55,926 nucleotides of DNA from an uncultured Clostridia bacterium (GTDB lineage: Bacteria; Bacillota; Clostridia; Christensenellales; UBA1242): NCBI GenBank assembly GCA_944377825.1, contig CALWGA010000010.1, positions 1-55,926 on the forward strand. The letters run 5' to 3'. Below the pieces are notes generated by a model that saw only the letters and a program-made list of their open reading frames with translations, did no database searches and had not been told where the DNA came from. The first letter of the stretch is position 1. The number at the start of each line of letters is the position of its first letter. The translations under genes and the position numbers were made by a program. Of the stretch, positions 5,731-55,926 are shown piece after piece.

Positions 5731-5736
5731 ATGTTT

Positions 5737-5766
5737 ATTGTAACTAATTTTTGCAAAAAATGTCAA
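5737..5766 (-). promoter_or_regulatory. promoter abutting the start codon of the giant gene (candidate leaderless mRNA)
   Basis: On the minus strand: TTGACA (5766-5761), 18 nt, TACAAT (5742-5737), 6 nt, ATG (5730). No Shine-Dalgarno sequence. Confidence 0.5.
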
Positions 5767-5841: not shown

Positions 5842-6306
5842 CTAAATTTCTTTGTGTAGCCATTTAAATTCATTCATTTGGTTGATTTTTATTATTATAT
5901 TAAAATTTGGACATAATTGAACTAGTGCTTTATACATTTTTTTAGTGATATCTACAGATATCTCTTGCTGACTAGAAATAAAAGATAAATAGAAACGGCC
6001 TTTTGCGACAGGAATACTATCAACATCTATTACTTCATTCCATGGAATTTTTTTTATTTCCTTTTTCATTCTTTCTAATGCTATATAATTTTCTGAAATT
6101 ACAACCCTTGATAGAAGTCGTTTATTAAATATTAGTGAACATAATAATATTATTAGAGCAATCAATCCTATCAACATTAAAGGGTAAAAAGATAAATCTG
6201 TAGACATTAAAATTGAACCAGTTAAAAATATTATGAAAGATATTGTAAAGAAAAGTGGATAAATAAATAATAACTCCATTTTATGAGCCCAAAATTTAAT
6301 TGTCAT
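5842..6306 (-). CDS. hypothetical small membrane protein (2 TM segments plus a soluble C-terminal domain)
   Basis: ORF with an AAGGAG Shine-Dalgarno upstream of the ATG. It has two hydrophobic segments (LLFIYPLFFTISFIIFLTGSILM and LMLIGLIALIILLCSLIF). Confidence 0.6.
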   Translation of the reverse strand: MTIKFWAHKMELLFIYPLFFTISFIIFLTGSILMSTDLSFYPLMLIGLIALIILLCSLIFNKRLLSRVVISENYIALERMKKEIKKIPWNEVIDVDSIPVAKGRFYLSFISSQQEISVDITKKMYKALVQLCPNFNIIIKINQMNEFKWLHKEI

Positions 6307-25673: not shown

Positions 25674-28600
25674 ATGGCAGAGAAAAAGAAATGGTCCGAT
25701 TTTATAACACTGGGATATAATATATTTGATTACTTATCAAAAGGTGAAAAGACCGACTTGAACGATAAAGAAAAAGAGGAAGTCGAGACTGCTATTAAGT
25801 ATGCAGAGCACTATTCTAGCGAATATAATGCTTATGTAAATCAAGCTATTGATTCTATGGCGCCAATCGACAAGATAAAATTTGACATAAAAAACCTTCA
25901 AGCAAATCAAAAAGCTCAATTTATAGCTAGATTCTTTACAGGCGAAATCCTTAAAGAAAACTTTAACGACAAATTAAAAGATGTTGAAAATGTAGAAACA
26001 GACAAAAGAGAAGAGCAAGAAGCTAACAAACAAAACATATCTAAGCCAGACAAAATAAATGCAGAGCAACAATCTAGCGAAAAGGTCAAAGAAGAAGAGA
26101 AAAAAGACGCTTTGAAAGGCAGAATGACAAGGAACAAGGGTGAAACAAGCACGTATAGTAATGGTCGTGGCACCGCAAATTTCACAAGCCAAAATATCAG
26201 TTTGCCAAATTTTCCAGGCGAAACAAAATTTCAAAAAGTAGCAGTGTCGAATTATACAACGGACGACCCTAAAAACTCAACTCTTATTAAAATAACAACA
26301 AATGGTAATAATATCGCTACTTTTTACACAGAGGAAGGCAAAATCTTCTTAGAAATTCACGAAATAAATCTCGCTTTGACCTTATTATTAAAAGAAAATG
26401 TCGACATTAAGAAGATACCCATCGAAACCCTTTGCCTTGACAAAAAGATGGATATCCAGGTTAAAGGCTTAGGCAAAAGTTCGCGTAAAAATGCTCAAGA
26501 TAAAAATTTAGGGTTTCTTTTTTCCGCATATGGTTTTCAAATGAAAACTGATGACAATAATGTTATATTTAAAAATGATACTCCTTTCAATATTGAAATT
26601 GACGAAAAGTTTTTGGATATAGCACTCGCAAATGAATTAAGCGCAGAAAAATCGGATAAAGGCTGTATCTTAGGCAAAGATATGAAACTTGACTCGTCAA
26701 CCATGCAAAGTTTGCTTCGAATGGTTTCAATTAATAACACCGCCATCTCTAGTATATCTGGCAAAACAAGTTTAGCAAATGGCAGAATTAAACTCACAAC
26801 CGAAAATTATCAGTTCGAGCAAACCGAAGTAGTGAATGGGCGAACAATAAAAAGGCGAGCGCGACGCCCTATGGAATTTATGGAAATAGATGGCAAGCCG
26901 TATGTCTATCTATCAATTATTGAAAATAGAACAAATAATGAACATGCTGGCAGATTTTATGAACTAAACGGCATCAATATAACAGATGATAAACACATCT
27001 TTTTCACAATTAAAGATAGAAGTTTAGTAACACTTCCAAATGAACCTGCAAATTCAAGAGTTGTAGAAATTCCATATGCAGCAAAAGATTTTGTGGAAAA
27101 ATTGGCTACTAATGAGAAAATAGTATTTAGCAAAAACTCACTTGAAGCAAATGCCACCCTTTCAAACAAAACGTATGGAAGAAGAGCATATAATGACGCA
27201 TGGGCTCAAGCATGGGATAATAAAGATTTTTCGTCAGAGGTTTACAACTACGACAGCGCTGGCTTTGTAAGGCGCGATGATGCCGAAAGTGTGCTTAGAA
27301 AGGATAATGCAAAAGAGACTGCGCCTAATATAGAACCAAAGTCACAACCTGAAAACACTGAAGAACAAGCAGAAATGAGCGTACCATACGAAAACACTGC
27401 ACCTCAATTCGAAGATTACGATATTGTTTCCGAAAGCGAAGCCACATCTGACATCTCTCTTAATGAAAATAATAATTCAACCGCTGGCGACAGCGAACAA
27501 CCGCTGGTTGACACCGACGGAACTGGAGATGAGGGAAATCCAACACCCGAACCTGCGCCGCAGTCTGAACATCAACCCGCGCCTGAACCTCAACCAGAGC
27601 CTGAACCTGTGCCTAAACAACCTCAAGAACCACAAACTGAACAAGAATCGGCTCATGATCAAAATACCCCTGCTGATGGCGGAGGAAATCCTACCGCTCC
27701 GCAGGAGGAGGAAGAGATTGAAACTCCAAAGAAGAAAAGTGCGCTCGATATTCCGTTTATCGAAAATAAAGAGATAGGCAAATTAGATAAAGACGCACAA
27801 GCAAAATCAAACGAAATTGCCGCAAAGGTAGGCACCGGGATTTTAGGCGTTGGTGTTGTGCTTATGGCATTCAGCGTGATCATACCTTTCCTTGCACCAT
27901 TTGTCATTGCCGCCTTTGCCACAAGCACCATCGTTTTCACAAAGCCATGGGAATGGGTGCAAGTTTCTAAATCTAACGCCATTGACCGAGCAAACGCCAA
28001 ACTTGCCAAGGAAAAACTGAAAGAACTAAAGCGTGAAAGGATAGAAGAAAACGAAAGACTAATCATCGACAAAAATCAACAGCGCATCGCCGCTTTGCAA
28101 AATGAGAATGCCGGGATAGACGCTAGAATCAATATGCTTGAAACACGCAAAAGTGAATTACAAAAACAAAACGGCATACTTTATATGTCAGCAGACAGCG
28201 GAGAGGATGTTCTTCCAGATATCAAACTTAAAAACCCAAAAACTCTTGATGAACTTGAAACGATGAGCAAAGCGGATAGGCGAGCCTATGAAACTCATTT
28301 CGCCGCCTTACTCTCTTTAGGCATAACTGACGAAACAAATATGACCGAAGAGCAAGAAAAGCAGTTAGAGTTCCTTGAAAGAAGCATGAAAAGAGACTAT
28401 AGTCTTTCAAGTGACAGTCGGATAGCAGCGGCTCACAGAGAGGACCTTGTGACCATCATGGCTGCATTGCAGGAAAAAAATATCGCTCTTGATAGCGCAC
28501 AAAAGCAGTTTGATGAAAAAAGTTTAGACTATGAAAATGAGTTAAAAATTGCAACCGAGTTAGCAAACGATCCTAATGTTGTAAATTATATAAAATATAA

Positions 28601-29510
28601 AGACGAACGTGAAAAGGTAACAAATGAACTTAAAACCATTAAATTAGACTCGTCACTAGCACCTGAGGTATATAAAACATTATTAGATAGAAAAACGAAA
28701 TTAGACGAACAAGCAGCAGATTATAAAAAGAAAATTGATAACCTATTTGCAGACGAAAAGACAGGGAAACAAATAACCGATTATCTCACATCAACTGACA
28801 AATTGGTTGATTTAGACAAAGAAAAAAACACAAGTGAAGAAGCATTAAAAACCCTTAAAGCAGAGATAAATGACCTTGCTCTTAAAGGAGAGATTGCAAA
28901 AACAATATTTATCAACGACAAAATGGCTGAGGCACACAAAAATGATAAGCCGATCTTAATCGAAGAGCAACGCAAGGCAGCAATTCGAACTAACTCTGGC
29001 ATTATACAATCAATTGACAATCAGATATCTGAACTAAAGAAAATTCAAACTCAAAATAACAAACTTTCTGATAAAATTTTTGAAAAATCTAAAAAAGACT
29101 ATGAAGAACAGACTACTCGACGTAAAGAAAAAGGCGATGAAGCATACACCGCGTCTAGAGTGCTAACAGAAAATGTGGACGAATATCTTAGAACTTCCAC
29201 CACAAGCGCCGCAGTTCAAGCCGAGCAGGATTATATCAAAGCCCAACAGGAAGAGGCGAAGGAATTTGCCGACAAAGTCCTTAAAGAATATGATAGAATT
29301 GCAGAACAAGGACTTCAAGGTAAAGAACTTAAGGAAGCGCTTGATTATGCATTCTTAAATATCAACAACGTAAAGAGAATGTCAGCACCTGAACTTGGCA
29401 CTGGATTTAACAAACTTACAGAAGAAGCCAAAGAAAGATTTGGTTATACACCGCCTGAAAAAGACGCTGAGCGTGGCATCGCAACTCCCCCCCCGCAAAG
29501 GGTGGTATAG
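25674..29510 (+). CDS. large hypothetical protein: N-terminal globular region, acidic and proline-rich linker, TM hairpin, long C-terminal coiled coil
   Basis: Strong Shine-Dalgarno and no N-terminal signal peptide. Contains PEPAPQSEHQPAPEPQPEPEPVPKQPQEPQ and a roughly 36-residue hydrophobic block (GILGVGVVLMAFSVIIPFLAPFVIAAFATSTIVF), followed by about 480 aa of heptad-like K/E/L/Q-rich sequence. Confidence 0.8.
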   Translation: MAEKKKWSDFITLGYNIFDYLSKGEKTDLNDKEKEEVETAIKYAEHYSSEYNAYVNQAIDSMAPIDKIKFDIKNLQANQKAQFIARFFTGEILKENFNDKLKDVENVETDKREEQEANKQNISKPDKINAEQQSSEKVKEEEKKDALKGRMTRNKGETSTYSNGRGTANFTSQNISLPNFPGETKFQKVAVSNYTTDDPKNSTLIKITTNGNNIATFYTEEGKIFLEIHEINLALTLLLKENVDIKKIPIETLCLDKKMDIQVKGLGKSSRKNAQDKNLGFLFSAYGFQMKTDDNNVIFKNDTPFNIEIDEKFLDIALANELSAEKSDKGCILGKDMKLDSSTMQSLLRMVSINNTAISSISGKTSLANGRIKLTTENYQFEQTEVVNGRTIKRRARRPMEFMEIDGKPYVYLSIIENRTNNEHAGRFYELNGINITDDKHIFFTIKDRSLVTLPNEPANSRVVEIPYAAKDFVEKLATNEKIVFSKNSLEANATLSNKTYGRRAYNDAWAQAWDNKDFSSEVYNYDSAGFVRRDDAESVLRKDNAKETAPNIEPKSQPENTEEQAEMSVPYENTAPQFEDYDIVSESEATSDISLNENNNSTAGDSEQPLVDTDGTGDEGNPTPEPAPQSEHQPAPEPQPEPEPVPKQPQEPQTEQESAHDQNTPADGGGNPTAPQEEEEIETPKKKSALDIPFIENKEIGKLDKDAQAKSNEIAAKVGTGILGVGVVLMAFSVIIPFLAPFVIAAFATSTIVFTKPWEWVQVSKSNAIDRANAKLAKEKLKELKRERIEENERLIIDKNQQRIAALQNENAGIDARINMLETRKSELQKQNGILYMSADSGEDVLPDIKLKNPKTLDELETMSKADRRAYETHFAALLSLGITDETNMTEEQEKQLEFLERSMKRDYSLSSDSRIAAAHREDLVTIMAALQEKNIALDSAQKQFDEKSLDYENELKIATELANDPNVVNYIKYKDEREKVTNELKTIKLDSSLAPEVYKTLLDRKTKLDEQAADYKKKIDNLFADEKTGKQITDYLTSTDKLVDLDKEKNTSEEALKTLKAEINDLALKGEIAKTIFINDKMAEAHKNDKPILIEEQRKAAIRTNSGIIQSIDNQISELKKIQTQNNKLSDKIFEKSKKDYEEQTTRRKEKGDEAYTASRVLTENVDEYLRTSTTSAAVQAEQDYIKAQQEEAKEFADKVLKEYDRIAEQGLQGKELKEALDYAFLNINNVKRMSAPELGTGFNKLTEEAKERFGYTPPEKDAERGIATPPPQRVV

Positions 29511-38467: not shown

Positions 38468-38869
38468 ATGAAAAAATCAACAACGCTAAAGAATCTATTT
38501 GTATTAGTAATATTGACATTCTCTTTATTTAGCATATTTTTTGTGACTGGATGCAATTCAGAAAACACCATTCTTACAAGAGACGCAACAAATAACGATA
38601 TTGATTTTGATTTGTCAAATGAGTTCTCGCTGAATATTGAATACGCAATAACTCCGAGAGTAGATATAAATAATTTGGAAATTACTTTTAAATATTATGA
38701 TAAAAATAATAACTTGCTTACTACAAAAATTAAAAATATTGGCAATGTTAAAGAAGATATTGAATATTCGGTAATAGTGAGTTTAACAGAATTTTCATTT
38801 TTAGATATCTTTAAGTTACACTCTGTTAGTGCAAGGGTGACAGGTGGAACTGTCTCATATTTTGCTTAA
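38468..38869 (+). CDS. putative lipoprotein
   Basis: AAGGAG Shine-Dalgarno. Signal peptide with lipobox: LTFSLFSIFFVTGCNS. Confidence 0.7.
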   Translation: MKKSTTLKNLFVLVILTFSLFSIFFVTGCNSENTILTRDATNNDIDFDLSNEFSLNIEYAITPRVDINNLEITFKYYDKNNNLLTTKIKNIGNVKEDIEYSVIVSLTEFSFLDIFKLHSVSARVTGGTVSYFA

Positions 38870-39449: not shown

Positions 39450-40673
39450 ATGAAAGTGCCTAAACTTGAAATAACTTTTAAATCTGTTGAAGGATGGGAT
39501 TATTCTGGTGGAAGAAGTATGAATATTTGGGGACAAGTCCCTACAAAATATTTACCACTTGAAGAAATAAACGAAGCGATAGAAAAAGGCAAAAAATCTT
39601 GCATTTGGACTTGTTACGACAACAAGATTTATGGCAACACAGATGAAAACGGAAAAATTCTACCTATAACTGAGCAAGATTTGCCTAAAACAATTTCTGC
39701 AACATTTAAGCCGTGCTACGCAAAATATTCAGCGATTGCCGAAAACTTGGGCATGCGCATCGCCATGGCGCTTGATTTGCCAACTTCTTACAATTATATT
39801 GTGGAGTTCAATCCAAAAAATCCAAAATACAAAGACATTGTTCGTCACTTAAATGATAGAGATTTGAAAAAACTGCAAAAATATGGCATTGTCTCCATCG
39901 ATTTTTTAAAGCCTGCAACTTTGGAAAACGAAAGTTTGTCGCAAGCATATTCTGGCGATAGGCTTGTTTCTTTTGAAGAGAGTATTCAAATGGCACATCT
40001 TAGATTTTCAAGCGATCCAAGCAAACCACTCCTTGTTAAAACATGGATTGAGAGCCTTAGAGATTTTGTTGTTTCTAAAATGGACTTTGCACTTCAATAT
40101 ATGTCAAAGGAAAAATTTGTTGACCAAATTAAAAAAATTGAAAGTCGAATTGTCCGCTCATATCTTTTGCGCGAGTTTATCGGCGACTGTGATTTCACTG
40201 ACATGAACAGCGGACTATGTTACGACAGCAAAGCGCACACAATTATGTATGCTCCTAACTTTGACTATGGCGAATGTTTTAATTCTCTCATTAAAACTAA
40301 ATTAGATTTTATGCCGCCTGACGAAGAATTGGAAGTGATTGTAAAGTGGGATAAAAATTATATCGAGAAAAAATTAGAAAAAAGTAAAACGCCGATAAAT
40401 GAATTAGCAAAAAGTTATTCCACCGCCACCAGCGAAGAAAATGTCAGATTTATTATGAGCAAATACCCAGAAGACGCTAAAGAATTTTTTGAAAGTTTGA
40501 AACTTGCACTGAAAGAAGGAAGATTGACAAATCTTGTCGATGCCTACACAAAATGCGATGAACCGCTTTTAACTAAGGAAGAAGCGGATATGTTTAAAGA
40601 ATATATCTCAAGCCGTGCCGATTTCTTTGTGAATGCCTTGGAACTTGGGCTTAATGGAAAAGAAAAACAATAA
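39450..40673 (+). CDS. hypothetical protein with a HipA_C-like / kinase-like catalytic motif
   Basis: Monocistronic, with its own promoter, Shine-Dalgarno and terminator. FIGDCDFTDMNSGL...YAPNFDYG resembles the HipA-type GN.D.H.KN ... aP.YD catalytic and Mg-binding loops. Confidence 0.75.
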   Translation: MKVPKLEITFKSVEGWDYSGGRSMNIWGQVPTKYLPLEEINEAIEKGKKSCIWTCYDNKIYGNTDENGKILPITEQDLPKTISATFKPCYAKYSAIAENLGMRIAMALDLPTSYNYIVEFNPKNPKYKDIVRHLNDRDLKKLQKYGIVSIDFLKPATLENESLSQAYSGDRLVSFEESIQMAHLRFSSDPSKPLLVKTWIESLRDFVVSKMDFALQYMSKEKFVDQIKKIESRIVRSYLLREFIGDCDFTDMNSGLCYDSKAHTIMYAPNFDYGECFNSLIKTKLDFMPPDEELEVIVKWDKNYIEKKLEKSKTPINELAKSYSTATSEENVRFIMSKYPEDAKEFFESLKLALKEGRLTNLVDAYTKCDEPLLTKEEADMFKEYISSRADFFVNALELGLNGKEKQ

Positions 40674-40706: not shown

Positions 40707-40737
40707 TCTTTAAATTTTCTCATATTCTTTACATTTT

Positions 40738-42792
<2,055 letters not shown>

Positions 42793-42822
42793 TTATATTT
42801 ATTCAAAAATTTAGGAGAGAAA

Positions 42823-43134
42823 ATGATTAAAATCAAAAGGAAAAGCCCTTATCAAATTTTTTTAGATACCTATGGCGAAGAAGCACAACTTGATATGGCA
42901 ATCGAAGAGATGAGCGAACTAATTAAGGCTATATGTAAGTATAAAAGATTTTATAAGACTGCCAATGCAAGCGAAAAAGAAAAGCTAGTTAATGATATAA
43001 TCGAAGAAACGGCAGATGTCACTCTCAATATTGAAAAACTTGCATATATTTTCGGCACGCAAAAGGTGGAAGAGATGAAGGAGTTTAAGTTAACTAGAGG
43101 ACTTGAACAAGCAAAATCGGCAAAAAAGGAGTAA
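42823..43134 (+). CDS. small MazG-like all-alpha NTP pyrophosphohydrolase-family protein
   Basis: 103 aa with an EExxE ... ExxD metal-ligand pattern (AIEEMSELIKA ... IIEETADV ... KLTR). An AGGAGAG Shine-Dalgarno is present. Confidence 0.6.
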   Translation: MIKIKRKSPYQIFLDTYGEEAQLDMAIEEMSELIKAICKYKRFYKTANASEKEKLVNDIIEETADVTLNIEKLAYIFGTQKVEEMKEFKLTRGLEQAKSAKKE

Positions 43135-43137
43135 GAT

Positions 43138-43677
43138 ATGAAAACTTCCTACTATGCAAACTTAAAAAACATTGACAAGGCAAAGTTTACACCTATCGCT
43201 ATCTCTGGTGACTGCGGAAAACTTGTTGGCTTTGAAGGAGTGGCTTTAAGGGAACTCTCGCCCTACCCTTTCTTTAAAAAGTGGAAAACGATTGATGATA
43301 AGATTGATGATATGTATGACGCCGGCGAAATTTCTTTAAACGAATATTGTGACTATAAAAATCTTAATCAAAACTCATATATAAAACAATTTTACCAAAA
43401 AGTTTTGAAAAAATTAGACCCGCACGAGGTTTATTCAAAATTAGGAGATGACGCCGTTCTACTTTGCTTTGAAAAACCAACCGATTTTTGTCACAGATTT
43501 TTGGTGGCGGGCTGGCTGGAATATAACCTTAACATTGAAGTCAATGAGTTAGGTTATGAAAATGACAAACAGGTGCAAGAAAACCGCGCTAAACTAAAAA
43601 GCAAAATTATCAATGAAATTGAAAAAGATAGGATGACTAATAACATTAAAGGAGAAGAGAATGGAAAAGAAAACTAA
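43138..43677 (+). CDS. DUF488-like protein
   Basis: N-terminus MKTSYYANL, an ISG...P region, and the hallmark AVLLCFEKPTDFCHRFLVAGWL (LLC-E....CHR). The AAGGAG Shine-Dalgarno lies inside the preceding stop region. Confidence 0.55.
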   Translation: MKTSYYANLKNIDKAKFTPIAISGDCGKLVGFEGVALRELSPYPFFKKWKTIDDKIDDMYDAGEISLNEYCDYKNLNQNSYIKQFYQKVLKKLDPHEVYSKLGDDAVLLCFEKPTDFCHRFLVAGWLEYNLNIEVNELGYENDKQVQENRAKLKSKIINEIEKDRMTNNIKGEENGKEN

Positions 43678-43972
43678 AAATCCTTACAAAAACTTTATGG
43701 AAACCTTTGGCGATGACTACATTATGAGAATAAGCATTGAAGAGTTAAGCGAACTTATTAAGGCGATTTGCAAGTATAAAAGAAAATGCGAAGATGTTGA
43801 CACTGATGAAAAAGAACTTCGCTATAAAATCTTAGACGGAATTGCCGATGTCGAAATCTGCATTGAAGAACTTGCATATATGTTTGATGGTTTTGACGAA
43901 ATCAACAAAATCAAACAAGAAAAAATCGAAAAAGGTACAGAAAGAGCGTTGAAATATAAGGAGAAAAAATAA
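43661..43972 (+). CDS. second small MazG-like protein (paralog of 42823-43134)
   Basis: 103 aa. It shares the identical string SELIKAICKYKR plus ADV and IE.LAY.F with the first copy. The second metal motif reads DGIAD instead of EETAD. It overlaps the DUF488-like ORF by 17 nt. Confidence 0.55.
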   Translation: MEKKTKNPYKNFMETFGDDYIMRISIEELSELIKAICKYKRKCEDVDTDEKELRYKILDGIADVEICIEELAYMFDGFDEINKIKQEKIEKGTERALKYKEKK

Positions 43973-44388
43973 TGACATTTCAAGAATATATCACAGAAAA
44001 TGCGATTAAGGTGACTAAAAACAAAGGTTTTGTAGAGGTAAACAATATTAATCGCTTTGGAAGAATTGAAAATATTAAATTGAAATATGTTTCAAAACAA
44101 GAATTTGAATACTTATCAGTTTTGTATGACTACTTGACAAAAAATAAAGATGTCAAATTATCGGCAGTTTACAGCGAACTTGCTTCAAACAAAAAACTTA
44201 AAGATTATTTTACATTGGTTAAGCAAAGTTCTATTGAACAAACGCTGGAAAGTATAGATGAATTAAGTTTTCACGGACCTATGTATTTAGCAATTAGAAT
44301 TAATAGTCGCCGAAAATTGGAAGATGCTGTAAATAAAGATGAAAAGCTTAAAAAAAATAGAGTGTTTCTTGAAAAACAAAAAGACTAG
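43972..44388 (+). CDS. hypothetical protein (138 aa, orphan)
   Basis: AAGGAGA Shine-Dalgarno and a TAATG stop/start overlap with the preceding ORF. No motif recognised. Confidence 0.6.
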   Translation: MTFQEYITENAIKVTKNKGFVEVNNINRFGRIENIKLKYVSKQEFEYLSVLYDYLTKNKDVKLSAVYSELASNKKLKDYFTLVKQSSIEQTLESIDELSFHGPMYLAIRINSRRKLEDAVNKDEKLKKNRVFLEKQKD

Positions 44389-44403
44389 AAAAGAGGAAAA
44401 ACA

Positions 44404-46986
44404 ATGAGCAATAAGAAAGAAGAAGAAAAGAAAAGTTTAAAAGAGTTAATGGAAAATGAAAAAGTCGAAAAGGTGGAAGTGATTGGAGAACTTAAAAAGT
44501 CCTTCATATCCTACGCTATGGCGGTCAATGTCAGCCGTGCCATTCCTGATGTTCGCGATGGCTTAAAGCCGGTGCATAGAAGAATACTTTTCAGTATGGG
44601 CGAACTAAATAATTTCTACGACAAGCCTCACAAGAAGAGTGCGAGAATTGTCGGTGAAGTTATGGGTAAATACCACCCTCATGGCGACAGTTCCATATAT
44701 GACGCACTTGTGCGCTTAGCGCAAGACTTTTCCATTCGCTATCCACTTGTTGACGGACACGGAAACTTCGGCTCGGTCGATGGCGATCCACCAGCCGCTC
44801 AGCGTTACACTGAAGCAAGGCTCAGCAAGATTGCCTCCCTTATGCTTGAAGATATCGACAAGGAAACGGTAGATTTTTATCCAAACTTTGATGACACTTT
44901 GATGCAACCGACCGTGCTTCCAGCAAAATTTCCAAATCTTTTAGTCAACGGTGCGGACGGCATTGCGGTCGGCATGGCAACAAACATCCCGCCACACAAC
45001 TTAAGAGAGGTAATAAGTGGTGTGCAAGCGCTTATCGACAACCCAGATATCGACATTGACGAACTCATTAAGATTATCCCTGCCCCTGACTATCCAACTG
45101 GTGGAATAATCATGGGTAGAACCGCCGTTAAGCACGCCTATAAGACAGGACGAGGTGGTATCTTAGTTCGTGGTAGAGCCGAGATTGAGGAAACAAGCTC
45201 TGGCAGGCAAAGAATTGTCATCACGGAACTGCCGTATCAAGTGAACAAAGCGCGCTTTATCACGCAGATTGCTGATATGGTTAAAAACAAGAAACTTGAA
45301 GGCATAAGCGACATCAAGGAAGAAAGTGACCGCGAAGGACTTAGAGTTGTTGTGGACGTCAAAAAGGACGCCAACGCACAAGTCGTTTTGAACTCGCTCT
45401 ATAAACACACCATGCTTCAACAATCAAGTGGAATTATCATGCTTGCGCTTGTCAATGGCGTGCCAAGAGTTTTGAACTTAAAGGAAATGCTCTATTACTA
45501 CCTTGAACATCAAAAAGAGGTCTTAATACGCAAAACTAAGTTCGATCTTAAAAAAGCGAAAGAGCGTGAGCATATCGTTAAAGGCCTAGTGATTGCACTC
45601 GCCTCGATTGACGAAGTTGTTAGAGTTATCAAAGCATCAAAGGATAAGAATGACGCTAAGATTAACCTTGTCAACAACTTTGAACTTGACGAAATTCAAG
45701 CAACCGCCATCCTTGACATGACTTTAAGTAAACTTACCAATCTCGAAGTGGAAAAACTTAAAGAGGAACTAGCCGAACTAGAGCGAAAGATTGAAGATTT
45801 ACAAAATATTCTCGACACTCCTTCACGCGTCCTTCAAATAATCCGCGACAACCTTGAAGAGATTAAAAACACCTATGGCGACGAGAGAAGAACTGAGATA
45901 AGCATGGATATGGGCGGAATTGACATTGAGGACTTGATTGCCGAAGAGGATGTCATCGTCTCCATGACGCACATGGGCTACATCAAGCGCATGGCAATGG
46001 ACGAATACAAGGCTCAACATCGTGGAGGAGTTGGTATAACCGCGCATAAGACAAAGGATGAGGACTTTGTGGAGAAGATATTTGTCACCTCCACTCATGA
46101 TGACCTCTATTTCTTCACAAACTTAGGCAAAGTTTACTCGCTTAAAGCGTATGAAATTCCAGAGGCTCAACGTCAAGCAAAAGGAAGAGCGATGATTAAC
46201 CTTTTGCAACTTTCACTTGGCGAAAAAGTGGCAACAATCATACCTGTTAAAAAGGATGCGAAAGGCAACCTTATAATGGCAACAAAGAACGGGCTTATTA
46301 AGAAAACACCGCTTTCTGAATACGACAACATCCGCAAAGGCGGAAAGATTGCGATAAAACTACTCGACGGCGACGAACTTATCGGTGTGGACGTCACAAC
46401 TGGTCGCGATGACATTCTAATCGCCTCCCGCGAAGGAAAGTGTATCCGTTTCAACGAAACCGATGTGCGTCAAGTTGGCAGAGACAGTCAAGGCGTTAGA
46501 AGCATGAAACTTGGCGCTGACGACTGCGTTATCGACATGGCTATTGTTCACGAAGGAAAGAAGATTGTCACAATCTCCGAAAATGGCTATGGCAAACAGA
46601 CGGAGACTGACGAGTTTAGACTTCAACAACGTGGCGGTATGGGCGTGAAGGCTGGTGTGTTCAACGAAAAGACTGGCAAACTTGTGGCTTTAAAAGAGGT
46701 TGAAGAGGACTGCGACCTTGTTATGATTGCCGACAATGGCGTGATAATAAGAACGCACGTGTCCGACATCAGCACAATCTCGCGTGTCAGCCAAGGCGTG
46801 AAAGTCATGAAACTTCGAAACGGCTCACATATCGTCAGCGTGGCAGTCACCAAGCGTGATGAAGATGAAGAAAACGCTGAAAACGAAGAAAATATCGAAG
46901 GCGAAAAAGCAGATGAAATAGGAGAGCAACCTGAAATAGAAACCGCTGAAAGCGAAGAAGTCACAATAGACAACGAAGAAGAATAA
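44404..46986 (+). CDS. gyrA: DNA gyrase subunit A
   Basis: [25 protein letters not shown], the catalytic Tyr context [10 protein letters not shown], a GyrA-box-like QHRGGVG in the first CTD blade (gyrase rather than topo IV), and an acidic C-terminal tail. Confidence 0.97.
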
Positions 46987-46993
46987 AAGATAT

Positions 46994-47022
46994 GAAGTAA
47001 GGCAAACCTTACTTCTTTTTTT
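46994..47022 (+). terminator. rho-independent terminator of the gyrase operon
   Basis: GAAGTAAGG-CAAA-CCTTACTTC followed by TTTTTTT. Confidence 0.7.
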
Positions 47023-47146
47023 ATATTAAAATAAAATAGTGTAATTTTTTTGCTAATTTTCATATTTTTATTGATTTTTCTTTATTTTTTCATATGTTTT
47101 ATGCTATAATTTATGCGAAAAAAATTTTTACTGTTTTGGAGAGGAT

Positions 47147-49162
47147 ATGAACATTAAAATTTTGGAAAAAGAAAAGAAATATTTAAGTGCTGTTCAGAAG
47201 AATATCGATGAAAACTATGAGAAGTGTCAAATAACATATACTGACAATCTAAAGCAAATTCAAAACTATAAAAAATATTTCGCGGAAAATTTCTATGAGA
47301 TAAACAAAGACGGCGGAGAAATTGCAGAAATCAATGTTCAAATTGAAAGTTTAGAGCAGAACAACCTCGCTTTAACTAAACTTGCTAATCGCCTAAAAAA
47401 GCAAAAGAAAGCGCCATTCTTTGGCAAATTTGAGTTTAAGGCGGATGGCGAAAGTGAGGCAAAAAGTTACTACATCGGCATCGGTCACCTTCAAAACAGC
47501 GAGCATGTGAATATGGTCTATGACTGGCGTGCCGACATATCTTCGCTCTACTATGACGATATTTTAGGACGCACCTCTTACACCTGCCCTGAAGGCGAAA
47601 TACATGGCGAACTTTCACTTAAAAGACAGTTTAAAATTGAGCAAGGCGTGATGAAATACTATATCGACTCTAACCTTGTTATTGACGACAACATCTTAAT
47701 GGAGGAACTATCCAAAAACTCCTCCGCCAAGATGCATGACATCGTTTCCACTATACAAAAAGAGCAAAATACACTGATAAGAGAGAACGAACTTAAGAAC
47801 GTCATCGTGCAAGGGGTGGCAGGCTCTGGAAAGACCTCCGTTGCCATGCACCGCGTGAGTTACCTACTATATAAATATCGCAAGACGCTTAAGAATGAGG
47901 ATATCTTAATTCTCTCGCCTAGCGAACTTTTTGCCGATTACATCGATGAGGTTTTGCCATCACTTGGCGACGATAAACCTTTCACCACAACCTTTTCCAC
48001 CATGGCAAGAAAACTGCTCGGGCAGGACTTTATCTCGCGCGAACAACAACTTGATAAACTGATAACTTCGGGCTCGCAAAAGGACTTTGAAAACATCGCC
48101 ATAAAGTATAGTTTTGAATTTTTGGAGGACTTTAAAAACTTTTTAAACAACGATATTTGCAACCTTTTCATTCCTAAAACCATGGTTTTTGGCAAACTTG
48201 TGATTGCGGAAGAGGAAATTAGAGACATCTACTACAACAAACTTAAAAATTTACCTATCTACAAGCGAATTGAGGCGATTGCCGAACACATCGTCGACCT
48301 TTTCAATGTGCCTCGCGCAAAAAATATCGACTTCTATAACCGCGCAAAGAAACTCTTATACAACAAAATGATAACCACCGACTGCGTGAGAATATACAAC
48401 ATCTTTCTTCGCTCGGTGGAACTTGACGAAGTGCAAGAGATTAGCGCCTACGATATCGCACCGATACTCTTAATCAAAGAAAATTTATTCGGCTTTGACC
48501 ACAACTATGACGCAAAATATGTGGTTGTCGATGAGATGCAAGACTATTCGCCGTGCCACTTCTATCTCTTTGAAAAGATTTGGCACTGCCCTAAGATGTA
48601 TCTCGGCGATATCAATCAAAGCATCGACAAAAATCTATCCAAAGACTATTTAAGCCTGCTCGCGAAAGAAATCAAGGCAAAAATCTACTATTTGAATAAA
48701 TCATATCGAAGCACCATGCAAATCGCCAAATTCTCACAAAAGATACTCGGCAAAAAAGTGGCAAACAATGTCAATAGAAATGGCGATGAGGTTGAATTCT
48801 ATAGAACAAAAAACACCGTTCAAAAGATTGAAGAGATTGTCAAATTTCATAGAGACCAGACCGTCTGCGTGGTATGTAAGGATATGAAAGAGATAAAATC
48901 TCTACAAAAGGCCAGCAAATTTATTAACACCTTTGAGGTTTTGGACGAAGAGAAAGAGATGACCGAAAGCAAAACCCTTCTAAGCACCATCATAAATTCG
49001 AAAGGCGTGGAATTTGACGTGGTCATCATTCCATTTGCTAACGATGAAAATTATCATGACGAACTCGACCGCAACCTTCTCTATGTCGCCTCCACACGTG
49101 CGCTTCACAACCTATACTTCATAGCGGATAAAAAACCAAGTCGATTTTTAACAAAGAAATAG
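47147..49162 (+). CDS. helD: HelD-type (helicase IV-like) UvrD/Rep-family SF1 helicase
   Basis: The N-terminal FGKFEF...YYIGIGHL...VYDWRADISSLYY is typical of HelD. Also Walker A GVAGSGKTS, VVDEMQDYSP, YRST, KGVEFDVVII and YVASTRA. Confidence 0.8.
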   Translation: MNIKILEKEKKYLSAVQKNIDENYEKCQITYTDNLKQIQNYKKYFAENFYEINKDGGEIAEINVQIESLEQNNLALTKLANRLKKQKKAPFFGKFEFKADGESEAKSYYIGIGHLQNSEHVNMVYDWRADISSLYYDDILGRTSYTCPEGEIHGELSLKRQFKIEQGVMKYYIDSNLVIDDNILMEELSKNSSAKMHDIVSTIQKEQNTLIRENELKNVIVQGVAGSGKTSVAMHRVSYLLYKYRKTLKNEDILILSPSELFADYIDEVLPSLGDDKPFTTTFSTMARKLLGQDFISREQQLDKLITSGSQKDFENIAIKYSFEFLEDFKNFLNNDICNLFIPKTMVFGKLVIAEEEIRDIYYNKLKNLPIYKRIEAIAEHIVDLFNVPRAKNIDFYNRAKKLLYNKMITTDCVRIYNIFLRSVELDEVQEISAYDIAPILLIKENLFGFDHNYDAKYVVVDEMQDYSPCHFYLFEKIWHCPKMYLGDINQSIDKNLSKDYLSLLAKEIKAKIYYLNKSYRSTMQIAKFSQKILGKKVANNVNRNGDEVEFYRTKNTVQKIEEIVKFHRDQTVCVVCKDMKEIKSLQKASKFINTFEVLDEEKEMTESKTLLSTIINSKGVEFDVVIIPFANDENYHDELDRNLLYVASTRALHNLYFIADKKPSRFLTKK

Positions 49163-52987: not shown

Positions 52988-55926
52988 TTATGCAATTACG
53001 CTATTCATATATTGATTTCGATAGTAGTTATTTGTATAAATTAATCTTCCGCCAGCGATACCACCACTGTTGTCCTCATAGGAAGATTTTAGTTGATATG
53101 ATGTTGTGTTATAACTATCTGCGTCGTTATTTGAATATAAATCTAAGGAAACTAATATACTTGATAAATCAATCGTAAGCCCCGTCATGCTGTCAATGAA
53201 CGAATATGTTTTCTCTATTTGAGTGCCATCATCATCTATATAATATCCTGAGTATTGCTTAGCACCCAAATTAACATTCATATCTGCAGCACCATCATCG
53301 CCTAACAAACTTGAACCATCGAGAGTGAGTGTCATATTTTCGCAAGTTTCGTCGGTTGAAAAGGCAACTAAAGTTTCCTCAAGCGATGGATTTGCCTCTA
53401 TTGAATTGATAATGTCTATTATCATATCTGGTAAATTTATTCCTAAGAAAGATTCTTTCACTCCAAACGCATCCAAAATAATTTGCGTCAAGTTAGGCAT
53501 GATTTCTGCGCTTGAATATGTGTTTCTGCTAACAGAATCTTCCACAACTTTTGTCCAATCAGCAATGGTCCATAGCCAACCATATTTCCAATATCCACTT
53601 TCTGCAGTTTTTGAATATCTATGGAAAGTTAAATTGTTGTCTTTAAATTCAAAGGTCACCATTCTGGTATCAAAATCTCCATCAAATACCAACGACGCAA
53701 GTGTGCTGGTTTCAAATTCAATTTGTGCAAATATATAAGGATTATTAATATCTTCAATGTTTGCATATAAGTCAATTGACATATCCATCGTTATAATATC
53801 TATTATATTAATAGTCACAGTTCCTTTGAAATTAAAGTTCTTCGTATTCAACGTGTTCACTGCGATGTCCATAAACTCTGGCAGACTGCTTAGGTCGTGA
53901 TGTGTGGCTGAAGTGTTGTAGGTAAATTCAAAGTTATCTTGAACTCCATTCGAGTTAGTGTCTGTCTGTTGGTCGTCCGCTGGCTCTCCATATTCAAAGT
54001 TGATGTTTGCATACATATCACCAAGCGTAAAACTGATGCTTGTTGGCGAGCAGACTGTTACGCCATCTACAATCTCTTTTGTGAATAAGATTGTTAAATT
54101 GCCAACATCTTCTCCGCTAACTATGCTGATGATAAGGCTGGATGTGCTATCTTCGTTCACAAAAGAGATGTTATCAAGCATCTTTAAAATGTTGGAAACG
54201 CTTAAAAGTGTGGAGTCAACAGTTGTGACAACATCGTCGCCTTCCTCTTTATTTAAGCCCATAAGTTCACGCAAGAAACTGAAATCGATGGTCGACTGCT
54301 CAAACGAAGTGGTCAAATCCCAACTTTCGAGCATTGCAGGGTCAAGTTTAACATTCGTTATTCCCAAAATCATGGCAATTAGGTCACTCATGCTAGCATT
54401 TTCTATATGTCCACGGAATTTTGTGTCGGAATTTATGAAATTGTCATGCGCATAGGTAATGTAAAGTCCGCTTGTGTTCGGGGTATTCTCATCTTCGTAT
54501 TCATTGCTATTATAGTAGATGGATGCCTCATGTGCTGTGGTGGTAGATGTGTTATCTTCTGAAACGCTTGTTGTTGTAATATTCATGTCGCCTTGCACCT
54601 TCAGTGACTTACCACCAAACAAAGTGGAAACAATCTTCCTATCTTCTTCCGCCTTATTTTCAGCGTTAATCTCTTCCGCAAGTTCCACAAGAACATTGCT
54701 GTCTGTGAATTCTGTGTTGCCCAACTTTGCATTTAGTGAAAGTTTATAGAGCGTGGCAGTGATATCTTCAGTGGTATAAGAATAGGAGCCGTTGTTTAAA
54801 TAATCAAGCAATCCTTTCGCAAGAGATAAAAGTCCCTTGATGTTTTCAAAGTTGTTTAAGGAATACATACCGTCTTTGCCTTTGAGGCTTGCAACATTGC
54901 CTAGTTCGTCAAAGACAATGTCGTCCATGAACAGGCTGTTCGTTCCTATCGCCACATTTGAAAGGTAGATTGCGAAGTTCTTATCTTTCGTTATCGCCTC
55001 TTCATTTTCAAGCCACCACTCTTCGTAACTGTCATAGATGTCGGTGTTAGGGTCGACTATGTTTGCGCCAATCACAACTTTTGTTGGATAAATCTTTCCG
55101 TTTGCACTTTCGCCAAAGGCTTGCATAACGATGTCGGCAAATTTAGCGGTTTCGGTGTATTTCAAATCTTCGCCGATATTGATTTGCACGCCACCGTCAA
55201 TCCAGTTTGAACTTATGCTATTTAGTGCTGGTAAAATCACGTTAAATGTGGCGGTTAAATTTTCCATGCCAGAGATAGTCAACTTTAAGTCATCGCTGAC
55301 AAATGTCAAAATTTCGTCTATGGTCGACTCTGATAAATTAAAGGTAAGTCTTAAGCCTTGAAGGTCAAGATAGATGTCATCATCAAGTAGATAGATATAG
55401 GTTTCAATGTTCATAGCGCTTGTGTAGACGCGAACATATGGCACATATTCCTCGCCCTTACGCACAATCATGGCAAGCATATCGCCATAGAAAGAGGTTG
55501 TGCTGTATCTAACTGCCAAATCGCCAGAGATTGCATAGGTGTAGTCATCCACCTTGATATCTTCCACAATGTCAAATATTGGAGTTATATCCTCTTCGTC
55601 GCCAGTTGGTGCTGTTAAAGCAAAGTCGCTTGCATTGATTTGAAGGTCTGCGACATTCAATGTAACATCATAACCTGAAATATTCTTGGCAAAATTCAAG
55701 CCAAAGGTGTTTGTGTTTTTGTTGTAAGTTAGAATTAGGTCGATAAGATTTTCGTTGCTTGTAACTTCATTTGAATTGATAGCGGTTAACTCTTCATTTT
55801 CGCTTGCAAGCAAGGATATTGTGTAGGTCAAAACGCCGTTCTCTTCACTCTCAGTTAAGGTCAAGTTCCTTAATATCTCTAAAATATCGATGTTTTCAAA
55901 GTCCACTCCAAGTTCGGCACTGACCT
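52988..55926 (-). CDS. large hypothetical protein, 5'-truncated by the window edge (more than 978 aa)
   Basis: The frame stays open upstream of the track's GTG 55906 to the last base of the window. The sequence is D/E/N/S/T-rich with no motif recognised and no hydrophobic segments in the visible part. Confidence 0.75.
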   Translation of the reverse strand, partial: VSAELGVDFENIDILEILRNLTLTESEENGVLTYTISLLASENEELTAINSNEVTSNENLIDLILTYNKNTNTFGLNFAKNISGYDVTLNVADLQINASDFALTAPTGDEEDITPIFDIVEDIKVDDYTYAISGDLAVRYSTTSFYGDMLAMIVRKGEEYVPYVRVYTSAMNIETYIYLLDDDIYLDLQGLRLTFNLSESTIDEILTFVSDDLKLTISGMENLTATFNVILPALNSISSNWIDGGVQINIGEDLKYTETAKFADIVMQAFGESANGKIYPTKVVIGANIVDPNTDIYDSYEEWWLENEEAITKDKNFAIYLSNVAIGTNSLFMDDIVFDELGNVASLKGKDGMYSLNNFENIKGLLSLAKGLLDYLNNGSYSYTTEDITATLYKLSLNAKLGNTEFTDSNVLVELAEEINAENKAEEDRKIVSTLFGGKSLKVQGDMNITTTSVSEDNTSTTTAHEASIYYNSNEYEDENTPNTSGLYITYAHDNFINSDTKFRGHIENASMSDLIAMILGITNVKLDPAMLESWDLTTSFEQSTIDFSFLRELMGLNKEEGDDVVTTVDSTLLSVSNILKMLDNISFVNEDSTSSLIISIVSGEDVGNLTILFTKEIVDGVTVCSPTSISFTLGDMYANINFEYGEPADDQQTDTNSNGVQDNFEFTYNTSATHHDLSSLPEFMDIAVNTLNTKNFNFKGTVTINIIDIITMDMSIDLYANIEDINNPYIFAQIEFETSTLASLVFDGDFDTRMVTFEFKDNNLTFHRYSKTAESGYWKYGWLWTIADWTKVVEDSVSRNTYSSAEIMPNLTQIILDAFGVKESFLGINLPDMIIDIINSIEANPSLEETLVAFSTDETCENMTLTLDGSSLLGDDGAADMNVNLGAKQYSGYYIDDDGTQIEKTYSFIDSMTGLTIDLSSILVSLDLYSNNDADSYNTTSYQLKSSYEDNSGGIAGGRLIYTNNYYRNQYMNSVIA

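Follow-up and report, generated by a model that had tools for sequence, protein, structure and literature searches.

A lineage-wide variable gene slot within the gyrBA operon of uncultured gut Clostridia

Introduction

Few essential operons are as conserved, or have been studied as heavily, as that of gyrB and gyrA. What, then, are four small genes doing between them? The question is raised by a stretch of 55,926 nucleotides (nt) from an uncultured Clostridia bacterium (assembly GCA_944377825.1, contig CALWGA010000010.1, positions 1 to 55,926 of the forward strand; hereafter the window), in which four open reading frames (ORFs), orf1 to orf4, separate the two gyrase genes. An earlier note on this DNA had taken them for a horizontally acquired nucleotide-hydrolase module tied to the gyrase transcript. 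The survey reported here finds that the gyrB-gyrA junction is a lineage-wide variable slot inside the gyrBA operon, and we consider it reasonably probable that this slot is a hypervariable, recombination-driven site for accessory genes, whose cargo is phage-derived and plays a part in nucleotide metabolism or phage conflict.

Results and discussion

The gyrB-gyrA interval of the window

The two gyrase genes are 1.6 kb apart, a distance taken up by orf1 to orf4, all on the gyrase strand:

40795-42792, plus strand: gyrB, 665 aa, conserved 5' flank of the slot
42823-43134, plus strand: orf1 (M1), 103 aa, MazG-like
43138-43677, plus strand: orf2 (D), 179 aa, long-form DUF488-N3a
43661-43972, plus strand: orf3 (M2), 103 aa, MazG-like paralog of orf1
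43972-44388, plus strand: orf4, 138 aa, orphan family
44404-46986, plus strand: gyrA, 860 aa, conserved 3' flank of the slot

The successive junctions from gyrB through orf1, orf2, orf3 and orf4 to gyrA measure +30, +3, -17, -1 and +15 nt, and an AGGAG-type Shine-Dalgarno sequence stands ahead of every gene, in the form AGAGGA in front of gyrA; the four-ORF filling, the junction lengths and the Shine-Dalgarno sites described in the earlier note all reproduce exactly. The gyrB orthologs of relatives (65-97% identical) contain HATPase_c, DNA_gyraseB, Toprim and DNA_gyraseB_C domains, and their gyrA orthologs DNA_topoisoIV and DNA_gyraseA_C domains. A GyrA and an orf4 protein in the same 90% clusters carry the name Candidatus Caccovivens faecavium, and the lineage is one of uncultured gut Clostridia close to Candidatus Caccovivens.

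Contents of the slot in relatives

Two samples of relatives were compared. The first was anchored on orf2 and comprised 20 GTDB species representatives with homologs 52-83% identical, all metagenome-assembled genomes (MAGs) of uncultured gut Clostridia or Eubacteriales; because this set had been found through orf2, a second sample was drawn, anchored on GyrB alone and independent of the cassette, which provided 49 evaluable junctions. In the DUF488-anchored sample, 19 of the 20 species representatives carried the long-form DUF488 gene between gyrB (78-96% identical) and gyrA (72-96%). Its companions there varied: up to two MazG-like genes on either side, some of them from a degenerate subfamily, a family of about 95 residues that is sometimes fused to a PQ-loop domain, and one or two genes of the orf4 family. 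In L018, the closest species representative, M1 and the DUF488 gene were followed by two orf4-family genes.

In the GyrB-anchored sample, about 21 of the 49 junctions were empty, with gaps of up to about 108 nt and mostly of 0-18 nt. All distant relatives belonged to this class (mostly 0-18 nt, with 44 and 106 nt in two of them), and direct adjacency of gyrB and gyrA at 0-18 nt is the ancestral and outgroup state. A MazG-like gene was present at about 19 of the 49 junctions, often as the sole occupant (gap about 290-360 nt), and this ~100-aa protein, a predicted nucleoside triphosphate (NTP) pyrophosphohydrolase, is the commonest occupant of the slot. DUF488 was found at none of the 49 junctions. 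The other cargo consisted of genes of the orf4 family, which stood alone or beside a MazG-like gene, GNAT acetyltransferases of the RimJ/L type (PF13302, 8e-37) or of a small kind, a YhcG PDDEXK nuclease (6e-57) and an MNT-type nucleotidyltransferase (NTP_transf_2). The RimJ/RimL GNAT (PF13302) lies right after gyrB at L125:2790-3350, L127:7914-8474, L128:7918-8499 and L145:7929-8489, four loci of more distant relatives whose GyrB is 75-76% identical and which hold it with or without a MazG-like gene.

The slot thus holds zero to four small genes (cargo of 0.3-1.8 kb) in more than ten architectures among the relatives, several of them within a single species. The cargo is co-directional with gyrase, except for antisense ORFs from a greedy gene caller, at least some of which are spurious, and its junctions are tight (median 9 nt; 30 nt or less in 104 of 138). 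What had looked like a one-off insertion in the window is, in this survey of the interval, one state of a slot that varies across the lineage.

The ~95-aa occupant, here called 'cl2' and recognised by the pattern ICGSMRF...GYIGES..EI.YAK, was located at L010:5686-5982, L021:6498-6797, L023:5104-5688, L024:6504-6788, L026:1696-2268 and L027:3937-4227, and its occasional fusion partner is an N-terminal PQ-loop (SemiSWEET-like) membrane domain (PF04193, 2.9e-10). A motif impression of likeness to nucleoside 2-deoxyribosyltransferases stayed unconfirmed, as profile searches of Pfam, PHROG and the PDB returned no match for this family. Homologs of 'cl2' also occur near short DUF488-N3a genes in L087 and L222.

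Gene-by-gene turnover among close strains

Comparisons of closely related genomes show that the turnover of the cargo is recent and proceeds gene by gene, through precise swaps and losses. In L001, whose flanks are 100% identical to those of the window, a sharply bounded patch is only 55-88% identical at the nucleotide level, and its orf4 is 60% identical in amino acids with a synonymous divergence (dS) of ~1.0:

43880-44415, plus strand: variable patch running from the 3' end of orf3 through the whole of orf4 and across its junction with gyrA

A dS of ~1 for orf4 between flanks of complete identity indicates an imported allele. In L002, orf4 is missing. L104 (87-92% identical to the window in nucleotides) has exactly the DUF488 gene swapped for an orf4-family gene between M1 and M2. 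Between L030 and L107 (95-97% nucleotide identity), 461 nt of the DUF488 gene are gone in L107, with its last ~58 nt left as a scar, and disrupted DUF488 genes were also seen in L036 and L037. The slot genes are individually dispensable. Distances between MazG-like proteins correlate with those between the corresponding GyrB proteins at r = 0.56, and they rise to 0.71 for loci that are less than 5% apart in GyrB. Because the co-divergence is only moderate, we rejected a strictly vertical inheritance of the MazG-like gene.

Exchange probably proceeds by homologous recombination anchored in the highly conserved gyrB 3' and gyrA 5' sequences and in paralogous cargo (M1/M2). We infer this route because the turnover is mosaic, because there are neither inverted repeats nor room for attC sites, and because M1 and M2 share a direct repeat that may act as a recombination anchor:

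42901-42948, plus strand: direct repeat of 48 nt, 85% identical to 43736-43783, corresponding to the paralogous IEEMSELIKAICKYKR segments of M1 and M2 that flank the DUF488 gene

Expression signals and composition

Two signals frame the operon:

40728-40756, plus strand: presumed operon promoter, TTTACA-17-TATAAT with an extended -10 TG, 11/12 match to consensus, the best sigma-70-like site 5' of gyrB
46994-47025, plus strand: intrinsic-terminator-like hairpin and T-run, a 9-bp stem followed by TTTTTTTATA, the first after gyrA, with the consensus scan placing the site at 46994-47015

The first of these presumably acts as the gyrBA promoter. No terminator-like hairpin was found by consensus scan between 42792 and 44404, in agreement with the placing of the first terminator after gyrA in the earlier note, whereas the promoter of gyrB had been put at 40738-40766 and a promoter-like match within orf4 (discussed below) had been overlooked. 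That the cassette is embedded in the gyrase operon is borne out by geometry alone, namely by the junctions, the common strand and the signal scans. The cargo, in which no promoter or terminator of its own is recognisable, would be transcribed by read-through from the gyrB promoter and be partly translationally coupled, so that its expression would follow that of gyrase.

With regard to composition, the cassette has a GC content of 0.28-0.34 and a GC content at third codon positions (GC3) of 0.23-0.36; in gyrB and gyrA the two measures stand at 0.44-0.46 and 0.47-0.51. The contrast with gyrase on which a foreign origin had been argued is therefore real, but an AT content as high as that of the cassette is found in other genes of the window (5842-6306, 38468-38869 and 39450-40673), whose mean GC is 0.383. 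The window is otherwise ordinary bacterial chromosome, encoding SecA, RecD2, a class I Glu/Gln-type tRNA synthetase, a P-type ATPase and three tRNAs.

The MazG-like proteins orf1 and orf3

Both proteins matched PHROG 2245, 'nucleoside triphosphate pyrophosphohydrolase' (orf1, 3.2e-20; orf3, 6e-16). A profile of 32 homologs gave weak matches in the PDB (2q73, 2q5z, 4qgp and 5ie9, E 0.009-0.065), the best being integron MazG (2q73, E 0.009; 2q5z); in the MazG matches IEE..EL and EE..DV are aligned, and the lower matches comprise other small nucleotide pyrophosphohydrolases with one unrelated protein among them. The MazG-like character proposed for the two products is upheld by these matches, although, because they fall below the Pfam cut-off, we assign them at the level of the superfamily and of the PHROG and not to Pfam MazG sensu stricto; orf3 had no match to PF03819.

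The acidic motif is complete in orf1 (E28 E29 E32 ... E61 E62 D65), and its residues are invariant or near-invariant in the alignment. The EExxE...ExxD signature that had been ascribed to both products is only partly present in orf3, which is about 42-46% identical to orf1 and retains EExxE but has D-G in place of E61-E62, giving DGIAD, a variant shared with L004 and L104. All six acidic residues are retained in 34 of the 39 slot MazG-like proteins. Ratios of nonsynonymous to synonymous divergence (dN/dS) against L104 were 0.09 for orf1 and 0.03 for orf3, with 0.03 for gyrB; purifying selection on orf3 is thus as strong as that on gyrB despite the altered motif. By their predicted activity, orf1 could hydrolyse non-canonical or phage-type (deoxy)NTPs, and orf3 could be a paralog with a specialised or a regulatory role, perhaps as a partner in a hetero-oligomer. 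In their size of ~100 aa and in the orf1 motif, they resemble the small phage-type MazG-like NTP pyrophosphohydrolases (PHROG 2245; 2q73/2q5z; Clostridium phage phiCT19406B). They differ from these in sitting between chromosomal gyrase subunit genes and under the Pfam MazG cut-off, and orf3 differs further in having D-G for E61-E62 of ExxD, yet it is strongly conserved.

The DUF488-N3a protein orf2

The match of orf2 to PF22751 (DUF488-N3a) scored 23 bits (E 1.1e-4), below the curated cut-off of 27 bits, and that to PF04343 (DUF488) had an E-value of 0.068. Its identification as a DUF488 protein is nevertheless supported, since many of its homologs, 55-89% identical, have precomputed PF22751 matches, the LLC.E....CHR block is invariant and its predicted structure matches viral DUF488 proteins. 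Across 37 long and short forms, T3, C110, E112, C118, H119 and R120, which belong to an N-terminal T-S-Y strand and to this block, were invariant. The AlphaFold2 model had a predicted local distance difference test (pLDDT) score of 96, and its best matches in BFVD were a DUF488 protein of Halogranum tailed virus 1 and PhiPA3 gp174 (probability 0.99, template modelling (TM) score 0.40-0.52). A Foldseek search of the PDB with the model found nothing at E<0.001; the top hit was PtpB (probability 0.69, TM 0.45), a match too weak for us to claim a relationship to phosphatases or rhodaneses. A sequence-profile search of the PDB with the DUF488 alignment found nothing meaningful.

Within DUF488 (PF04343; E. 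coli YeaO), orf2 shares with the subclade DUF488-N3a (PF22751) the T-S-Y strand, the LLC.E....CHR block, PHROG 2450 (6.8e-18) and the predicted fold. Unlike the phage forms of 111-135 aa, it belongs to a long-form clade (166-186 aa); a helical hairpin is inserted at ~residues 43-88, a long helix lies at the C-terminus (144-176), and the gene occupies the gyrB-gyrA slot in place of phage early or anti-defence neighbourhoods. The dN/dS of orf2 against L018 was 0.15, and on such ratios and on the alignments orf1, orf2 and orf3 are all under purifying selection with their predicted catalytic residues conserved.

The literature searched contained no mention of DUF488-N3a or PF22751 and no described function for DUF488 or YeaO, and one preprint states the absence of literature on yeaO. 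Apparent matches in a review of SGNH hydrolases, considered as a source of function, concerned DUF4886 and were discarded. Possibly orf2 is an enzyme of the Cys/His/Arg type whose substrate is a nucleotide or a nucleic acid. The only long-form copy found outside the gyrase slot, a frameshifted one (L036:4591-6449), overlaps the end of a gene for an NT5C-type 5'-deoxyribonucleotidase, with an ADP-ribosylglycohydrolase gene before it and a gene for a PnuC-type nicotinamide mononucleotide transporter nearby, neighbours that hint at a nucleotide or nucleoside substrate for DUF488-N3a.

The orphan protein orf4

No match to orf4 was obtained in Pfam, PHROG, NCBIfam or PADLOC, or by sequence search of the PDB, and an exhaustive phmmer search of 1.84 billion representatives recovered a lineage-restricted family of only six clusters, which agrees with its description as an orphan. 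All members with readable genomic context lie in the gyrB-gyrA interval. The family is basic (isoelectric point (pI) 8.6-9.5; 9.3 for orf4), and orf4 is probably a nucleic-acid-binding protein. Its AlphaFold2 model, built from seven sequences, reached a pLDDT of 90 and comprises a helix, a beta-hairpin and five helices, a fold for which no match was found in the PDB. The dN/dS of the 5' part of orf4 against L104 was 0.85, a value that is unreliable because the L104 copy is frameshifted.

Two irregular copies may be mentioned. The L104 ortholog (L104:4074-4480) is split by the frameshift into 94 aa and 54 aa and is either a pseudogene or a sequencing error. At L240:117-494 and L241:117-494, a product named P0143 consists of the N-terminal ~88 residues of an orf4 allele and the C-terminal ~37 of GyrB and is followed by an orf4-family gene; these contigs are only 0.9 kb long, and P0143 probably reflects the chimeric assembly of strain variants that occur together, although it could be a real recombinant.

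Phage ancestry and neighbourhoods of the enzyme families

Both enzyme families are of phage ancestry, and DUF488-N3a is carried mostly by phages. Short DUF488-N3a proteins (111-135 aa, 28-42% identical) had at least 560 matches in IMG/VR, many of them in jumbo phages of 230-540 kb and in Lak megaphages. Outgroup homologs of the MazG-like proteins belong to siphophage replication modules (ERF, SSB, G39P, RecU) and to Clostridium and Terrisporobacter phages. These matches confirm the phage relatives that had been suspected for both families. Their supposed co-travel in phages is a different matter: among 146 phage, prophage and other loci, searched with a cassette-specific and a broader hidden Markov model (HMM), no slot-type MazG-like homolog lay within 5-6 kb of a short DUF488-N3a gene, which contradicts the claim for the MazG-like family of the slot. 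The same loci contained no orf4 or gyrase homolog within 5-6 kb and no topoisomerase gene nearby, and a general link between DUF488 and topoisomerases was rejected on this basis. The neighbours of short DUF488-N3a genes in phages are instead GNAT-like, DAM-like, Tad3, ParB_N, amidoligase and methylase genes, and in single phage lineages dNMP kinase, FolD or a PRA-PH-type pyrophosphohydrolase.

Taken as a whole, the cargo would be a set of dispensable genes of phage origin that serve to survey nucleotide pools or act in conflict with phages, and its members would be neither subunits nor obligatory regulators of gyrase.

Weighing of the alternatives

Several points weigh against a recombination-driven slot with phage-derived cargo. 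The two samples behind the occupancy frequencies are biased in different ways, the first being anchored on DUF488 and the second on GyrB. Co-transcription and coupling are deduced from geometry and consensus scans, and the recombination mechanism from mosaic boundaries. A 10/12 promoter-like match lies within orf4 (44134-44161), although it is no more than chance would give in such AT-rich DNA, the 31 matches in the scanned region being only a slight excess over the 23.5 +/- 5 of shuffled sequences. Against Pfam MazG (PF03819), orf1 reached an E-value of only 0.078 (13.7 bits; curated cut-off 22 bits), and DUF488 has no characterised member. Finally, the orf4 family and the clade of long-form DUF488 proteins are almost confined to the slot, and this near-exclusive location could mean a gyrase-specific role and not that of generic cargo.

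That last point leads to the idea that the orf4 family, and perhaps the long-form DUF488, bind gyrase or protect it against phage or toxin inhibitors, in which case they would evolve fast in an arms race, and their place between gyrB and gyrA would secure matched amounts and co-assembly. We regard this as unlikely. It would account for an orf4 family that has only six clusters and lies, in all readable contexts, between gyrB and gyrA, for the allelic replacement of orf4 at a dS of ~1 within one strain background, for a basic protein (pI 8.6-9.5) with a confident fold that lacks a solved match, and for a long-form DUF488 that sits in the slot in 19 of 20 species with clade-specific helical additions. 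FicT toxins AMPylate GyrB, and a Fic gene is found divergently upstream of gyrB in several relatives. However, orf4 and DUF488 are dispensable at the strain level, many relatives have empty junctions, and none of orf1 to orf4 resembled a Pfam family of known gyrase binders or toxins (Qnr/MfpA pentapeptide, GyrI/SbmC, YacG, CcdB, ParE, Fic) at E-values up to 1; the exclusive location would also be explained by birth in the slot followed by spread only through flank-anchored recombination. Of similarly low probability is the view of the junction as an anti-phage defence hotspot, in which the cargo would ride on a relaxation-inducible gyrase promoter and phage-induced changes of topology would raise the expression of defence genes. 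Strain-level presence and absence together with allele turnover are typical of such hotspots, the cargo is of phage ancestry and elsewhere includes GNATs, the YhcG PDDEXK nuclease and the MNT nucleotidyltransferase, and weak PADLOC candidates were obtained for orf2 (PDC-M45C, 4e-6; PDC-M19A, 9.5e-5) and for the 407-aa gene upstream of gyrB (PDC-M03A, 9.5e-7). Nevertheless, no established defence system was matched in PADLOC-DB 2.0 (orf1 had one non-significant match, Cas10_Id, E 0.004; orf3 and orf4 had none), the commonest cargo is a single ~100-aa enzyme without a recognisable sensor or effector partner, and purifying selection on the MazG-like protein equals that on gyrB, which fits housekeeping at least as well. 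The stimulation of gyrBA transcription by relaxation in this organism is itself an assumption. The combined and bolder proposition, that the slot is a functional extension of gyrase in which orf4 and the long-form DUF488 act on gyrase or gyrase-bound DNA, or that its genes are anti-phage nucleotide enzymes wired to the supercoiling-sensing gyrase promoter, is speculative and, we think, improbable; as an extension of gyrase, the cargo might shield the enzyme from phage or toxin gyrase poisons or reverse a nucleotide-type modification.

The reading put forward in the earlier note, a single horizontally acquired four-gene nucleotide-hydrolase system tied to the gyrase transcript, is very unlikely and essentially refuted. 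In its favour, the four genes form an unbroken and tightly packed row with some overlaps, their AT content exceeds that of gyrase, relatives of both enzyme families occur in phages, and L018 likewise has M1-DUF488 followed by two orf4-family genes. But each gene occurs without the others (MazG-like and orf4-family genes as sole occupants, DUF488 by itself or in other company), near-identical strains differ by swaps or deletions of single genes, and a homolog of the slot's MazG-like family was near DUF488-N3a in 0 of 146 loci, where GNAT, DAM-like, Tad3 and ParB genes are the phage neighbours instead. As for an assembly chimera or non-coding filler, the short chimeric contig with its fusion of a 5' portion of orf4 and the 3' end of gyrB (P0143, L240, L241) is an example of the former, but the chance that the whole arrangement is of this kind is negligible. 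The gyrB-cassette-gyrA order recurs in independent assemblies from different samples (L001-L003), and the cassette is therefore not a chimera, which settles the concern about a false junction; homologous arrangements exist in dozens of species, the identical orf4 protein was found on seven contigs (the longest of 84 kb), dN/dS values are far below 1, and the folds of orf2 and orf4 are confidently predicted. The variable, recombination-driven accessory slot hence remains the reading that we prefer.

Likeness to known systems and implications

In our classification, orf1 to orf3 are new members of known families and orf4 represents an orphan family, and the slot itself fits best among the core-gene-flanked hotspots or among promoterless cassette arrays, here one that lacks integron machinery. 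On the one hand, it resembles an integron cassette array in being a row of promoterless, co-directional and individually exchangeable small genes behind one upstream promoter, and integron-borne MazG (iMazG) is the closest solved relative of orf1. Unlike integrons, however, it has no attC-like inverted repeats, and its junctions, at -17 to +30 nt, are too short to contain recombination sites; a repeat search found no inverted repeats in 42600-44600, and an integron-like mechanism was rejected for that reason. No integrase was noted among the annotated ORFs of the window, in which no systematic search for one was made. On the other hand, hotspots of horizontal transfer or defence flanked by core genes are a general concept of pan-genome studies, and the slot is like them in its variable content between conserved genes, its strain-level presence and absence and its sharply bounded allele replacement. 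It differs from the usual hotspots in that its flanks are two subunit genes of one essential enzyme in one operon, and in that its cargo is tiny (0.3-1.8 kb), promoterless, presumably co-transcribed and without a recognised match to known defence systems.

In Caldalkalibacillus thermarum TA2.A1, a 4.7-kb spacer that is described as unique to the strain and contains transport and regulator genes lies between gyrB and gyrA (PMC7561548). The likeness is that unrelated genes part the two gyrase genes; in our case, the slot is polymorphic throughout a lineage and filled with small enzymes predicted to be directed at nucleotides. The literature searched contained no published polymorphic accessory slot between the two gyrase genes.

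An essential operon can thus house an accessory compartment with fast turnover, the junction behaving like a small cassette array, and the slot lends itself, as a natural experiment, to the study of read-through expression and of recombination anchored in the flanks. It also provides a comparable and testable context for DUF488-N3a, for a MazG-like paralog with an altered active site and for an orphan family known only from the slot. If any of the cargo acts on gyrase or protects against phage, the slot would be relevant to gyrase biology, to quinolone and toxin susceptibility and to phage-host conflict in gut Clostridia; if it is indeed an extension of gyrase or wires anti-phage enzymes to the gyrase promoter, it would add a new layer to gyrase-linked conflict biology and give a first functional handle on DUF488.

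Other features of the window

Directly 5' of gyrB lies the 407-aa gene already mentioned (39450-40673, plus strand), which has no Pfam family and is kept in some relatives (L030, at 71%, and L102); in L007-L010 a divergent Fic-domain gene occupies its position. After the terminator of gyrA, the window encodes a UvrD-like superfamily 1 (SF1) helicase (47147-49162, plus strand, 671 aa), for which PADLOC returned only generic GajB-type helicase matches. The two small ORFs at 5842-6306 (minus strand) and 38468-38869 (plus strand), with GC of 0.245 and 0.274 and GC3 of 0.18 and 0.23, deviate more in composition than the slot cargo and have no Pfam match. Three very large ORFs, at 922-5766 (minus strand), 25674-29510 (plus strand) and 52988-55906 (minus strand), encode 1614, 1278 and 972 aa and have no Pfam match at E<=1e-5. 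The UvrD-like helicase gene is kept after gyrA in most relatives examined (36-86% identical), where it is followed by hisS wherever the context is annotated.

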